In this document: in pieces, positions 32,923 through 52,114 of the stretch
Layout: every line of letters starts with the position of its first letter
How positions within the stretch are numbered: position 1 is the first letter of the stretch
From: a virus
Taxonomy: Duplodnaviria; Heunggongvirae; Uroviricota; Caudoviricetes
Direction: 5' to 3' (one strand)
DNA length: 62,731 bases
IMG/VR virus record: IMGVR_UViG_3300037510_000569
Coordinates: 1 to 62,731 of that record
Notes under the pieces: model-generated
Databases searched by the model: none
What the model was told of the DNA's origin: nothing
Seen by the model: only the letters and a program-made list of their open reading frames with translations
Position numbers and translations under genes: made by a program

Positions 32923-32974
32923 TGGGCGGTAGCTCAAGGGCAGAGCGCCGGGCTCATGGCCCGGTGGTTACCGG
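32923..32974 (+). pseudogene. 5' two-thirds of a tRNA-CAT (Met/Ile2), broken at the T-loop
   Basis: TGGGCGG TA GCTC..GAGC G CCGGG CT CAT GG CCCGG TGGTT ACCGG, then the ATG of the next gene where TTCGA is expected. Confidence 0.65.
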
Positions 32975-33550
32975 ATGCCTGACGACGCCCAGCCCGACGA
33001 TGGACCTGATATGACCGACCTTGAACTGCTCACCGAGAAGATCAAAGCCGTCCTCACGGCGGATGGCTTCGAGGTCGAGGGCGGTGCCTTGACTCACGTC
33101 GGCAACGTGACCGCCAAGAAGGACGGGGAGGTCCTACAGGTCAGGCTGACCCTCGGGGAGATCAAACCGCGCGAACCTTGACCCCGCCGAGTGGGAGGCT
33201 GTCAAGCGGTGAGCGCCTCAACCGATCGCTTCCCAGACGGTGCCGCCTTCCCCGAGGGCTACTTCCCGGTGGGCCAGCCCGTCGATGAAGGCGACGTTGT
33301 GCTCTACGCGCTCCAGCCCCAGAACGACTCCGTGGAGCACTGCTTCATCGTCCGCGCCTACCGCGGCGAGGAGCTGTTGGGCGAGAAGAAGATCCCGATG
33401 AGCCACGACAGCCGCTTCGGTATCGACGCGGAGGACGGCGCTGCGCTGGAGGCCGGGACCGACGAGTGGCTGGCCGAGATCAGGGGGGCGCTAGGCTTGA
33501 TCCATAGCAGGGCCGTAGCTCAGAGTACGTCGAGACCCCGGCCGCCCTAG
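32975..33550 (+). other. two hypothetical CDSs
   Basis: 32975-33181 and ~33191-33550, acidic, GC3-rich. Confidence 0.55.
33509..33548 (+). pseudogene. tRNA relic (acceptor/D start joined to a degenerate T arm)
   Basis: AGGGCCG TA GCTCAG ... GTCGAGA CCCCGG CCGCCCT. Confidence 0.4.
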
Positions 33551-33576
33551 CGGGCATAAGGTAGTCCGGGTCGTCA

Positions 33577-33669
33577 GGGGCGTAGCAGAGAGCACCGCCA
33601 ACGTGGCGTCCCGTTGATTGATCGCACAGGACGGGAGGGCGGCGGAAGGACGTGGGACTAGCTGCCCCA
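33577..33669 (+). ncRNA. structured tRNA-mosaic RNA of unknown class
   Basis: GGGGC..AGC/GCTGCCCC closing stem, TCCCGT/ACGGGA; contains GCCAACGTGG identical to the tRNA-Gly anticodon region; -10 TAAGGT at 33557. Confidence 0.35.
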
Positions 33670-33683
33670 CCGGCCCTGCATCT

Positions 33684-33756
33684 GCGGCTGAAGCTCTGTC
33701 GGTGGAGCGCCACGTTGCCAACGTGGAGGTCGCGGGTTCGATCCCCGCCAGCCGCT
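33684..33756 (+). tRNA. tRNA-Gly(GCC)
   Basis: Full cloverleaf, CCACG TT GCC AA CGTGG, U73; A at position 8; no encoded CCA. Confidence 0.9.
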
Positions 33757-33788
33757 CTGTCCGCACCTCCGTCTAGCGTTTCCCGTGG

Positions 33789-33977
33789 ATCGTCGCTTCG
33801 ATCTACAACATCTCTCCTCTCTGTCACCCCCCCAGCGCCCCGTCGTCTCCCTGTCGGCGGGGCGCTTGCGCTTCTGGCTCGCAGCGGCTACGGTGGCGAG
33901 CCACATAGCCGTCCTCGCCTCTAGATGTCCTGGTACGACTTGAGGGCGGCGCCCGAGATGTTGTAGAGAACGGCGAT
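33789..33977 (+). ncRNA. multi-branched structured ncRNA, unknown class
   Basis: P1 33789-33814/33955-33977 (13 perfect bp plus extension), 12-bp, 8-bp and 9-bp inner stems; G-U pairs indicate the + strand. Confidence 0.65.
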
Positions 33978-33978
33978 T

Positions 33979-34020
33979 CGCCTCCCCGAAGTGTTCAGTC
34001 GAATGTGGGGAGGCGTTTCG
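33979..34020 (+). terminator. intrinsic terminator
   Basis: CGCCTCCCC/GGGGAGGCG stem followed by TTTCGTT. Confidence 0.65.
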
Positions 34021-34048
34021 TTGTCCGGGGCGTCTTTAGGATCGGTAG

Positions 34049-34534
34049 ATGCCGTGGGAACACGTCAAATGCGGCACCGTTCACGAAGGCCGCGTGCCGC
34101 CGGTCAACTGCGCCTACTGCTGGCTCCACAACACGCACATCCCGGTCGTGCGCGGCGACAAGGACAGCGGCAAGGGCTGGCGCAAGGTCGGGGGCACTGG
34201 CCCGGTGGATGTGCCGCATCCCAACAACCGGAAGAGCCGACGCCGCGGCAACCGGCGCATCGGCCCCGAGCGGCGCGAGAAGCTCTATGAGCGCGACGGA
34301 TGGAAGTGTGTCGAGTGCGGCGAGGACGACAGTGCCCTGTTGACGCTCGACCACAAAATCCCGCGCTCCAAGGGCGGCGACAACAGCGATGACAATCTCC
34401 AGACGATGTGCCACGACTGCAACAACCGCAAGGGCGACAAGGTGCCGAACGGCGTCCGCTGGCCCTCCCAGAAGGAGATGCGCCGCGTCGATGCAGCGGT
34501 TAGGCTTCCCGCGGATGCCCGACCAGACTGCTGA
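34049..34534 (+). CDS. HNH endonuclease
   Basis: RDGWKCVECG..LTLDHKIPRSKGG..NLQTMCHDCNNRKG; leaderless TAGGAT promoter. Confidence 0.9.
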   Translation: MPWEHVKCGTVHEGRVPPVNCAYCWLHNTHIPVVRGDKDSGKGWRKVGGTGPVDVPHPNNRKSRRRGNRRIGPERREKLYERDGWKCVECGEDDSALLTLDHKIPRSKGGDNSDDNLQTMCHDCNNRKGDKVPNGVRWPSQKEMRRVDAAVRLPADARPDC

Positions 34535-37017: not shown

Positions 37018-37019
37018 AA

Positions 37020-37092
37020 CGCGCCTGGCAGGATTCGAACCCGCATCGACCCGGTTTAGGAAACCGGCGCTCGTCCGTTGAGCCACAGGCGC
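37020..37092 (-). tRNA. tRNA-Arg(CCT)
   Basis: GCGCCTG/CAGGCGC, CCGGT TT CCT AA ACCGG, TTCGAAT. Confidence 0.9.
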
Positions 37093-37104
37093 AGGTAGAG
37101 GGAG

Positions 37105-37335
37105 CTACAGCGTCCTGAGTCTCGCGCGAAACCACACCCGGAAGGGCGTGACGAAGGTCTCGGAGTAGTGGACGGTGGTGATGAGCACCAGCGCCGCGAC
37201 GCCGAGGGCAACCCGTGCTGGCTCCCACATGCCGACCAGGAAGGAGGCGATGTTGATGAGGCCGATCGCCCCGTAGGACCACGCGACGCGCCGCAGCGTC
37301 GGGCGGAAGCTGAACTGGAGGATCGGGACCAACAT
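37105..37335 (-). CDS. small 2-TM membrane protein between tRNAs
   Basis: ATG 2 nt after the tRNA-Val 3' end; two hydrophobic helices. Confidence 0.55.
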   Translation of the reverse strand: MLVPILQFSFRPTLRRVAWSYGAIGLINIASFLVGMWEPARVALGVAALVLITTVHYSETFVTPFRVWFRARLRTL

Positions 37336-37337
37336 AA

Positions 37338-37412
37338 TGCCCACTCAGGGACTCGAACCCCGGACGGCCCGGTATGTAACACCGGCGCTCTCCCAAACTG
37401 AGCTAAGCGGGC
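37338..37412 (-). tRNA. tRNA-Val(TAC)
   Basis: GCCCGCT/AGTGGGC, CCGGT GT TAC AT ACCGG, TTCGAGT, A73. Confidence 0.85.
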
Positions 37413-37439
37413 AAAACGCCGATCGTCTCGGATCGGCAG

Positions 37440-37512
37440 CACGCCTGGAGGGATTCGAACCCCCGACCCCCGGCTTCGTAGGCCGATGCTCTGTCCGCTG
37501 AGCCACAGGCGC
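37440..37512 (-). tRNA. tRNA-Arg(ACG)
   Basis: GCGCCTG/CAGGCGT, TCGGC CT ACG AA GCCGG, TTCGAAT. Confidence 0.9.
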
Positions 37513-40510: not shown

Positions 40511-40619
40511 TGCGCCCGGCGGGACTCGAACCCGCGACCTCCGCCTTGAAAGGGCGGCGCTGCTGGACCCCGCATCTCCCGAAGGCGCGTAAGCCTCGAA
40601 CCAACTGAGCTACGGACGC
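40511..40619 (-). tRNA. tRNA-Glu(TTC) with a 35-nt insertion in the D arm
   Basis: GCGTCCG/CGGGCGC, CCGCC CT TTC AA GGCGG, GCGGG TTCGAGT CCCGC all intact; extra bases 40561-40595 inside the D-stem 3' strand. Confidence 0.85.
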
Positions 40620-50293: not shown

Positions 50294-52114
50294 ATGGCGA
50301 CGATCACCGACCTCTTCTGCGGGGCTGGCGGCTCGAGCATCGGCGCTGAGATGGCGGGGGGCGAGCTGCGCCTCGGCCTGAACCACTGGCCGCGCGCGAT
50401 CGAGACCCACGCGACCAACTTCCAGCACGCCGATCACGACTGCAACGACGTGTCGGCGTTGACCACGGCGCAGATCAGGGGCTACCCAGACTCCGACATC
50501 CTGCTCGCCTCACCGGAGTGTACGAACCACTCCCTCGCCAAAGGCGGGCGGCGCCGCAAACCGCAGCGCGGCTCGCTGTGGGAGGACGGCCCAGCTGGGG
50601 ATGCCGAGCAGGAACGCTCGAGGGCGACGATGTGGGATGTCGTCCGCTTCGCCGAGCAGAAGCTGTTGAAGGGCAAGCCCTACAAGATCATCGTCGTCGA
50701 GAACGTCGTGGACTCCTTCAAGTGGGGCTACGAAGACGACGGCGGACTCTTCCGAGCTTGGCTGGAGGCGATGCGGGCGCTCGGCTACGAGCACGAGATT
50801 CTCTGGCTCAATTCGATGTTCTGTCACCCGACCCCGCAGTCTCGGGACCGCATGTACGTGGTCTTCTGGAAGCGCGGCATGGTCGCGCCGAACCTGCGCG
50901 TCGAGCCCTTCGGCTGGTGCCCTCACTGCGAGAAAGCGATCAACGGTCGGCAGACCTGGAAGAAGCCGACTCTGCCTTGGGGCCGCTACGGGGCGCAGTA
51001 CTTCTTCTCCTGTCCGCTGTGCAACGGGGCGATGCTTCCCGGCGTCTTCCCGGCCGCCTCGGCGATCGACTGGAGCCTGCCCGCCGAGCGGATCGGCGAT
51101 CGCAAGAAACCGCTGGCCCAGGCGACGCGCGAACGCATCCGCCGCGGCCTGGAGAAGCTCGGCCGTGAACCCTTTGCGATTCGGCTCACCCACGGCGGCT
51201 CGCCGAAGCCGCTCACCCTGCCGATCGTCACGCTGACCCAGCGCCACGATATGGCGATGGTGATGCCGGTGGCCGGTAACACCTTCGAACGGACGCCGGG
51301 CAATCGCGCCCGCGACGCCGACGCTCAGCCCTGCGACACCGTTCACACGACGCTCGATCGCGCGATGGTCGTGCCGCCGATGGGGAACGTCGCCCCGCGC
51401 GACGCCGACGCCGCGCCGGTGCCGACCCAGACGACCTCGACGCGCGCCTCCCTGGTGATGGCGAACACCGAGAACAACGTCCCACGCGACGCTGAGCAAG
51501 AGCCCACGCAGACGCTGCGCACCGAAGGCGGACTGGCGATGGTGATGGCGAACCGCGCTCACAACGTGCCGAGGGACGCCGCCGAGAGCGCGGCGCCGCC
51601 GCTTCTGACCGGCAGCCACCTCGCCGTCGTCATGCGCAACAACAAAGGCGGCGCGGAGATGTCCACCCCTGCCGACAAAGAGCCGATCAGGACGCTGACG
51701 GCGGGATGCCACCAGTCTCTGATCGTGCCCTACGACCGCACCGGGGAGCCGCGGCCGGACTCCGAGCCGACGCCGACGTTGACCACGCGCGATCGCCTGG
51801 CGATGCTGGTCCCCTTCACGCGCGAGGCGCGCCCGCGCGATGTCGATCGAGAGCCGCTGACGACGACGACCGCGGAAGGACCGCCAGCGATCGTCCTCAC
51901 CGAGGAGGACATAGACGCCTGCCGCTTCCGCATGTTCGACCTCCACGAGATCGCCGAGGCGATGTCGATGCACACGCACGTCGACGGCGGCGAATACGTC
52001 GTCCTCGGCAACAAGCGCGAGAAAATGGCGCAGTACGGCAACGCGGTCACGCCGCCGGCGATGCGCTGGATTCTGGAAAGGTGCCTGCCGGTCCTGGGGA
52101 GTGCGGGCGGTTGA
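50294..52114 (+). CDS. C5-cytosine DNA methyltransferase with internal repeats
   Basis: TDLFCGAGG, LASPECTNHS, VVENV, QSRDR, YGNAVTPP. Confidence 0.9.
   Translation: MATITDLFCGAGGSSIGAEMAGGELRLGLNHWPRAIETHATNFQHADHDCNDVSALTTAQIRGYPDSDILLASPECTNHSLAKGGRRRKPQRGSLWEDGPAGDAEQERSRATMWDVVRFAEQKLLKGKPYKIIVVENVVDSFKWGYEDDGGLFRAWLEAMRALGYEHEILWLNSMFCHPTPQSRDRMYVVFWKRGMVAPNLRVEPFGWCPHCEKAINGRQTWKKPTLPWGRYGAQYFFSCPLCNGAMLPGVFPAASAIDWSLPAERIGDRKKPLAQATRERIRRGLEKLGREPFAIRLTHGGSPKPLTLPIVTLTQRHDMAMVMPVAGNTFERTPGNRARDADAQPCDTVHTTLDRAMVVPPMGNVAPRDADAAPVPTQTTSTRASLVMANTENNVPRDAEQEPTQTLRTEGGLAMVMANRAHNVPRDAAESAAPPLLTGSHLAVVMRNNKGGAEMSTPADKEPIRTLTAGCHQSLIVPYDRTGEPRPDSEPTPTLTTRDRLAMLVPFTREARPRDVDREPLTTTTAEGPPAIVLTEEDIDACRFRMFDLHEIAEAMSMHTHVDGGEYVVLGNKREKMAQYGNAVTPPAMRWILERCLPVLGSAGG

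Follow-up and report, generated by a model that had tools for sequence, protein, structure and literature searches.

The closest described systems are homing-endonuclease genes of the phage T4 type, in which inhibitory RNA structures form only on transcripts from an upstream promoter and a promoter inside gives a translatable RNA. I-TevI, I-TevII, I-TevIII, segB and Aeh1 mobE are examples, and in T4 promoters for downstream genes are located inside endonuclease ORFs (reviewed in PMC2988022). The locus analysed here shares much of this layout. A stable RNA structure, which could form only on transcripts arriving from upstream, precedes a nuclease gene of a homing-endonuclease family; a motif at 33882-33894, which we infer to be a promoter, is flanked by the two strands of the closing helix in three of three homologues, and its transcripts would lack the 5' strand; and the 3' end of the nuclease ORF houses a candidate promoter for the gene that follows. 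The analogy is nevertheless incomplete. Unlike the simple hairpin of the T4 type, the structure here is a multi-branched domain of ~190-225 nt, it covers no start codon or ribosome-binding site and ends 70 nt upstream, and a terminator-like hairpin intervenes between structure and gene.

RNase III stems, formed by sequences that flank a structured RNA, are known from rRNA operons and from the intercistronic sites of phage T7. The present element is similar in that distant flanks form an interrupted ~17-28-bp duplex around a domain, 3' of a tRNA and in a polycistronic context; it differs in that the length of the duplex varies among homologues and only an 8-bp base is strictly kept. No phage-encoded RNase III was found in the phage. 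Taken as a whole, the element is a genuine, conserved and hitherto unclassified structured RNA region, but a composite one.

The source phage is a complete 134,735-bp IMG/VR record (G000) with direct terminal repeats and a GC content of ~66%, and the stretch of DNA analysed here, referred to as the window (62,731 nt), is its first 62.7 kb. The phage carries 10 tRNA genes within the window and 16 in the remainder of the record, and its terminase shares only 26% identity with terminases from cultured phages. One related complete phage is present in IMG/VR (G001); with a terminase 82% identical, it is the closest complete relative. The original prediction, made from the sequence alone, had placed an RNA between tRNA-Gly and a terminator, and both flanks are present: tRNA-Gly(GCC) at 33684-33757 on the plus strand (ARAGORN; Rfam tRNA, 63.5 bits) and a hairpin at 33979-34015 with a U-containing tail. 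The element fills the gap between them, and a free-standing HNH endonuclease gene lies just downstream. Matches to the locus in GenBank phages were limited to the tRNA and part of the HNH gene.

Several tRNA-related sequences were observed in the same genomes. Just before tRNA-Gly, window positions 33511-33680 hold a tRNA-like 5' fragment (GGGCCGTAGCTCAGAG...) with a ~170-nt structured continuation, and in G001 a similar GCGCCCGTAGCTCAGT... unit follows tRNA-Gly(TCC) (L020, G001 51560-51800, minus strand); a T-arm and an acceptor 3' strand, both plausible, come ~230 nt further on. Each unit may be a tRNA-like RNA or an interrupted one; ARAGORN and Rfam made no call on either. Window 32923-32992 gives a sub-threshold tRNA match (26.3 bits versus a cut-off of 29), which over its first 44 nt shares 93% identity with an intact tRNA-Met(CAT) of G001 (L020 2863-2933). 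At window 40511-40619 (minus strand) the Rfam tRNA match spans 109 nt and ARAGORN calls a 77-nt tRNA-Glu(UUC), consistent with an inserted D-arm segment. Relative to the HNH region, the tRNA-Arg(ACG)/Val(TAC)/Arg(CCT) cluster has opposite orientations in the window (37019-37512, minus strand) and in the phage of the homologous contig L031 (3275-4367, plus strand).

Folding of the 189-nt plus-strand segment 33789-33977 gave a predicted minimum free energy (MFE) of -94.3 kcal/mol with a z-score of -6.3 (-6.27); two more flanking pairs extend the structure to 193 nt at 33787-33979 (predicted MFE -97.6 kcal/mol, z -6.15). None of 200 shuffled sequences folded as well as the element. The coordinates and anatomy first described, with a closing helix around hairpins at 33834-33866, 33875-33903 and 33908-33950, were reproduced. 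The closing helix has 25 bp and two small bulges, pairing 33787-33795 with 33971-33979, 33797-33799 with 33968-33970, and 33802-33814 with 33955-33967. Its 5' strand (33787-33814) comprises the P1 base GGAUCGUCG (33787-33795), P1a (33797-33799) and the P1b extension (33802-33814), and its 3' strand (GAGAUGUUGUAGA, GAA, CGGCGAUUC; 33955-33979) abuts the terminator-like hairpin. In the window P1b is a 13-bp perfect AU-rich helix, and this is specific to the window. A CU-rich junction strand of 19 nt (UCCUCUCUGUCACCCCCCC, 33815-33833) leads to hairpin P2 (33834-33866; -28.1 kcal/mol, z -3.65), which has a 12-bp GC-rich stem and the pyrimidine-rich loop UCUCCCUGU. Hairpin P3 (33875-33903), the second hairpin of the original prediction, follows, and then helix P4 (33908-33950), which has 10 bp, encloses a variable insert and begins immediately 3' of a conserved ACAUA. 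All of these features are on the plus strand.

No Rfam 15 family matched 33789-33977 at gathering thresholds. When the cut-off was relaxed to E<=10, the sole overlapping match was HTT-AS1_3, a human lncRNA region, at chance level (14.1 bits versus a 70-bit cut-off, E=4), and a scan of the whole window at E<=10 added nothing; the check for a known family that had been proposed with the prediction came out in its favour. The element is present as a single copy in G000. Searching with the protein anchor P0002 returned only the same phage from another sample (L114, 100% identical). Used as a query against a large protein collection, the HNH protein led to three close homologues on Logan contigs. 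In L029 the order is tRNA-Gly(GCC), a 224-nt element homologue, a hairpin and the HNH gene, and in L031 it is tRNA-Gly(GCC), a 210-nt element homologue, a hairpin and the HNH gene; L032 is identical to L031. The synteny tRNA-Gly(GCC)/element/hairpin/HNH is thus common to three loci, whose elements are three distinct sequences with pairwise identities of 56-59% and full-fold z-scores of -6.15 (window), -5.56 (L029) and -5.77 (L031). The third contig, L030, lacks the tRNA and the 5' half of the element and has the HNH gene together with the internal motif, a short hairpin and the terminator-like hairpin; this indicates that the 3' half of the element belongs with the HNH gene. The indels that separate the homologues (10, 1, 5 and 6 nt) are not multiples of three, and so no conserved reading frame runs through the three of them. 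An observation specific to L031 is a basic, coiled-coil-like ORF of 46 codons (173-309) that separates the element from tRNA-Gly; the 9-mer TCTACAACA is found both in this ORF and in the part of the closing helix that only the window has.

Beyond these loci the element was not recovered. Neither BLAST nor a single-sequence covariance model built from the window sequence (R1) found a copy in G001, where the HNH homologue is located elsewhere and without a comparable upstream region, and R1 found no second copy in G000 and none in 80 metagenome loci with HNH relatives. The genes of the distant HNH homologues P0006, P0013, P0015, P0018, P0026 and P0061 are packed against upstream genes without the element. 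The conserved core GCAGCGNNTANNNT-N8-ACATAGC gave only chance-level matches without the end motifs in viral contigs and 185,579 species genomes, the terminal-repeat pattern was not found in viral contigs, and the core pattern of the phage tRNA-Gly gave no matches or chance-level ones in the collections. The element family is real but very small (three sequences), and in the sequences searched it is found only in what appears to be a small clade of large tRNA-rich phages.

MAFFT was unable to align the 3' halves, and the helices were compared instead at anchored positions. Across the three homologues, a set of distinct sequences too few for a proper covariation statistic, P1, P2 and P4 together have seven two-sided compensatory changes, with no pair broken. 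All three retain the 8-bp base of P1 (GAUCGUCG/CGRCGAUC), and every change in it is one-sided (U-G to U-A, G-U to G-C). P2 has two two-sided compensatory pairs (C-G to A-U, G-C to C-G), and its loops are CU-rich in every homologue: UCUCCCUGU, CCUCCAUUC and one containing CCUUCGCU. P4 covaries at five of eight shared positions without a single non-canonical pair in the three homologues, and it is bounded by the invariant ACAUA directly before it and by GAAC/GCCC directly after it. The compensatory changes by which the original prediction proposed to be judged were thus found in P2, P4 and the terminator-like hairpin (three sequences). For the window and L029 the architecture of P1, extension, P2 and P4 is itself the MFE structure; for L031 it is a fold 7.7 kcal/mol less stable than the MFE.

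Other parts of the predicted anatomy held in the window and not beyond it. The closing helix, described at first as ~23 bp, has its 25 bp only here: its length is window-specific, the 8-bp base alone is kept, and the extension beyond this base compared with shuffles at p=0.002 in the window, 0.13 in L029 and 0.05 in L031. CUCCUC in the junction, taken for an unpaired anti-Shine-Dalgarno-like sequence, is single-stranded in the window but paired with GAGGAG/AGGAG of the 3' strand in L029 and L031. The window and L029 have an identical 18-mer (ACAUCUCUCCUCUCUGUC) that runs from the end of P1b into the first part of the junction. A pseudoknot between GCGGCUA and UAGCCGU was rejected: the complementarity exists in the window, but it has no counterpart in L029 or L031, and the homologues have UAGCG as a direct repeat instead. 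G-U pairs had been said to fix the strand, and in the window the plus-strand fold has six of them and the minus strand folds worse (-84.6 kcal/mol, z -3.2); in L029, however, the plus strand is without G-U pairs and the minus strand is lower in raw folding energy. The strand argument is weaker than had been claimed.

The centre of the element coincides with a recurrent motif. The 13-nt sequence CAGCGGNTANNNT occurs eight times in the window versus 0.18 expected from shuffles, always on the plus strand (14816, 33882, 34494, 40746, 42733, 48009, 57489 and 61356), and further copies lie at G000 68782, at L030 717 and, in G001, at L019 4147 and L020 15423 (both minus strand). Most copies are at gene ends or in gaps, 20-30 nt ahead of the next start codon, and one precedes a gene in G001; a leader of the (T)GCCCGACC type was often observed after them. 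Because of this position and its TAnnnT core, we read CAGCGGNTANNNT as probably the promoter of a phage gene class. An E. coli-type promoter scan, uninformative for a phage of 66% GC, called none in any homologue.

Within the element, the internal block P_B (33866-33910, plus strand) consists of TTGCGC (33866-33871), 17 nt, TACGGT within CAGCGGCTACGGT (33882-33894), 8 nt and ACATAGCC (33903-33910). It is the best-conserved block of the element centre: the spacing TTGCRY-N17-TAsSGT-N8-ACATAGC (core TAnnnT) is fixed in the window, L029 and L031 while the spacers vary. The -35-like TTGCGC directly adjoins the 3' side of P2, and the block overlaps hairpin P3 (33875-33903). P_B is a putative promoter that points at the HNH gene, with a likely start at ~33903, 5 nt before P4. 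A second candidate, P_A, is a -10-like hexamer TAGCGT (33774-33779, plus strand), a degenerate copy of the motif that precedes the first base of P1 by 6-7 nt and is a putative transcription start; only the L031 copy comes near the consensus (CAGCGTCTAGGCT, position 312), and there the 46-codon ORF separates it from the tRNA. The idea of a free-standing ~190-nt sRNA stands insofar as the segment is non-coding, syntenic, covarying and without an Rfam family; the core at 33866-33910 is the promoter-like motif that it had missed. With a conserved centre that looks like a promoter directed toward HNH, a single plain sRNA gene is incomplete as a description.

Downstream, the terminator-like hairpin CGCCUCCCC/GGGGAGGCG with the tail UUUCGUUGUCC occupies 33979-34026 on the plus strand (stem-loop 33979-34015; -21.6 kcal/mol, z -3.5). 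It is kept in L029, L031 and L030, and it covaries (CGCCUCCC/GGGAGGCG versus CGCCCUC/GAGGGCG in L031). The hairpin is followed by UUUCGUUGU or UUCGUCUUU, below the strict requirement for at least 5 U in 8 nt of an E. coli-type scan that is uninformative at 66% GC; the 10-nt tail holds 5-6 U here versus 3-4 after P2. The HNH gene (34049-34534, plus strand) encodes 161 aa with a Pfam HNH match at 4.6e-12 and homologues P0003-P0006. At window 34037-34051, TAGGAT stands exactly 6 nt before its ATG, with TACGAT in the three homologues (L029, L030 and L031; ATG or GTG starts), and a Shine-Dalgarno sequence is absent at the HNH start in three of the four loci (window, L029, L030 and L031). The conserved TAnnnT before the start could be a separate promoter for a leaderless mRNA, located 3' of the terminator-like hairpin. 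The HNH gene itself contains a copy of CAGCGGNTANNNT in its 3' end (34494-34506), and L030 has one at the equivalent spot (717).

We tentatively propose, at a probability of about 0.4, that the element is a structured non-coding module yielding nested transcripts, comparable to the control of T4 homing-endonuclease genes. The starts, the termination, any processing and the regulatory outcome are the parts of this model that we infer. A long RNA would enter from upstream, either by read-through of tRNA-Gly transcription or by initiation at the weak -10-like site that precedes the helix by 7 nt; holding both strands of the closing helix, it would fold P1, P2 and P4 and end at the terminator hairpin. 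A short RNA would start at the internal promoter near ACAUA (~33903), begin with hairpin P4 and be unable to close P1; with the 3' strand of the closing helix left unpaired, it would terminate at the same hairpin or read through into HNH. The likely purpose would be to shield the nuclease gene from transcription of the tRNA operon, with expression set by which promoter fired, and the long duplex could serve as a processing site for a host double-strand RNase. If HNH has its own leaderless promoter, the internal promoter may make only the short RNA. In folding predictions the freed 3' strand of short transcripts tends to extend the terminator stem; no mechanism built on this tendency held for all the homologues.

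Specific ways in which the helix might act on the gene were tried and rejected. Sequestration of the HNH start as in T4 was rejected on the grounds that the helix ends 70 nt before the ATG and that start accessibility is similar in both transcripts; in silico, no consistent difference between the long and the short transcript was found for the HNH start region. Attenuator schemes that set GAGGAG against CCUCC of the terminator, or GGCG against CGCC, each work in only some homologues, and base pairing between the HNH start and the 3' strand of the helix was predicted inconsistently.

An alternative that we regard as unlikely is a free-standing trans-acting sRNA, either as a ~190-nt transcript or as a shorter 5' or 3' product, in which unpaired CU-rich segments (the P2 loop and, in the window, the junction) would possibly pair with purine-rich ribosome-binding regions of phage or host mRNAs. 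Gram-positive sRNAs of the 6C and RsaE/RoxS type have C-rich seed loops. The element is like them in that its pyrimidine-rich loops could pair with G-rich ribosome-binding regions and in its terminator-like hairpin at the 3' end; it is unlike them in that there is no Rfam 6C match, the loops are not conserved, the CU strand is paired in two of three homologues and a putative promoter is embedded. The predicted 5' end of such an sRNA coincides with the -10-like hexamer and its 3' end with the terminator hairpin, the P2 loops are pyrimidine-rich in three of three homologues, the 18-mer shared by the window and L029 runs across the CU-rich strand and suggests a constraint on primary sequence, and L031 has UCCUCCUU, the exact complement of the phage ribosome-site core AAGGAGGA. 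Against this, the loop sequences themselves are not conserved, L029 and L031 pair CUCCUC internally with GAGGAG, and a complementary match to a Shine-Dalgarno core is too short to confer specificity. Nor would such an sRNA account for the promoter motif inside the element or for the association of the 3' half with HNH seen in L030.

We hold it equally improbable that the locus is a set of independent parts without joint function, in which P2 ends the tRNA unit, a promoter follows, P4 is a 5' stabiliser and a second hairpin stands before HNH; the closing helix would then be incidental, or in the window the product of a recent inverted duplication on the spot. Taken alone, each part can be read in an ordinary way, the -35-like TTGCGC comes directly after P2, the 13-bp perfect extension occurs only in the window while the homologues are marginal versus shuffles (p 0.13 and 0.05), and L030 works without the 5' half. 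This account has to contend with the 8-bp P1 at both extremes of the module in three of three homologues, where the changes preserve pairing, and with 5' and 3' extensions that pair better with their partner from the same homologue than in most mixed combinations. Nor does it fit easily with a whole-element z of about -6, which exceeds the separate hairpins, or with the tail after P2, which is U-poor (3-4 in 10 nt versus 5-6).

A further possibility, to which we attach still less weight and which we regard as doubtful, is a two-transcript RNA switch of a new kind, or the stable RNP scaffold of a new phage ncRNA family. In the switch, a tRNA-Gly trailer would bring the 5' strand and the RNA from the embedded promoter the 3' strand; the two strands would pair within or between RNAs, and the resulting duplex, possibly a target of a double-strand RNase, would couple transcription of the tRNA operon to the fate of the nuclease leader.

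It is very unlikely that the element acts at the DNA level, as an invertible promoter switch, as the ends of a miniature mobile element or as protein-binding repeats (GATCGTCG-like words at the helix ends and the HNH start). Imperfect ~20-25-bp inverted repeats do flank a ~140-bp segment with the promoter-like motif, the presence or absence of the element varies among related phages, and GGATCG(N)YCG-like words occur at the 5' end, in inverted form at the 3' end, and immediately ahead of the HNH start codon. An invertible switch was rejected, as neither a resolvase nor a phage-integrase domain was found in the phage (hence no serine or tyrosine recombinase of its own) and a single orientation is seen in four independent contigs (the three homologues and the second sample of the same phage). 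A miniature inverted-repeat mobile element was rejected as well: it has no dispersed copies, being present once in G000 and not at all in G001, and scans of viral contigs, in which the terminal-repeat pattern is absent, and of 185,579 species genomes were without the element. In addition, the helix mismatches of the window and L031 are of the G-U type on the plus strand, and the covariation of P2 and P4 would be left unexplained by any function of the DNA.

The phage also encodes a TROVE/Ro60 protein (Pfam matches spanning G000 88164-89189, 72 bits). Were the RNA a protein scaffold, as the original prediction suggested, this would be its one obvious candidate protein, for which better RNA partners exist at another locus. 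More Ro60-bound RNAs are expected than homology searches recover, and Y RNAs carry a motif GNCGAA(N0-1)G near the 5' end (PMC4201824). At least two YrlA-like RNAs stand in tandem directly upstream of the TROVE gene, at G000 87822-87942 (L025 6823-6943, E 1.5e-6) and 87567-87631 (L025 6568-6632, E 2e-5), with 40.8 and 36.9 bits, respectively, versus a cut-off of 69 and with clear T-arm and D-arm consensus. A repeated GTCTAGCG word near TROVE (87521, 87674 and 87800, minus strand) suggests three YrlA-like units. The element is like YrlA (RF02553) and Yrl1/Yrl2 of phiLo in being an ncRNA of a Ro60-encoding, tRNA-rich phage whose ends pair to close a module, and a terminal stem with an internal module is a shape in common with Y RNAs; unlike them, it has no T-arm or D-arm mimics, no GNCGAA/CGAA motif, no Rfam match and no adjacency to Ro60. 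YrlA and Y RNA models gave no match on the element at E<=10, the arms (GGUUCGA; the GUAGCUCA..GGUAGAGC consensus) are absent from its sequence, and its 5' strand GGAUCGUCGCUUCGAUCUAC has UUCGAU and no GNCGAA. A Y-RNA-like partner of the phage Ro60, with a long end-to-end stem and a structured module, is thus disfavoured and scarcely credible, given that these defining features are absent, that the element lies 54 kb from the TROVE gene (33.8 kb versus 88164-89189) and that YrlA-like RNAs already occupy the usual position directly upstream of the Ro60 gene, as in other phages.

Large tRNA-rich phages have many unexplained structured intergenic segments, and the element is an example with comparative support. 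Its significance is modest for now, with a family of three sequences. A striking 'four-way junction' can be a layered control region, made up of a tRNA trailer, a phage promoter, a nuclease leader and a terminator. The motif CAGCGGNTANNNT is usable to map transcription units of this uncultivated phage family. If the nested-transcript reading is true, the restraint of homing endonucleases known from T4 would extend to unrelated high-GC phages, in a different structural form.
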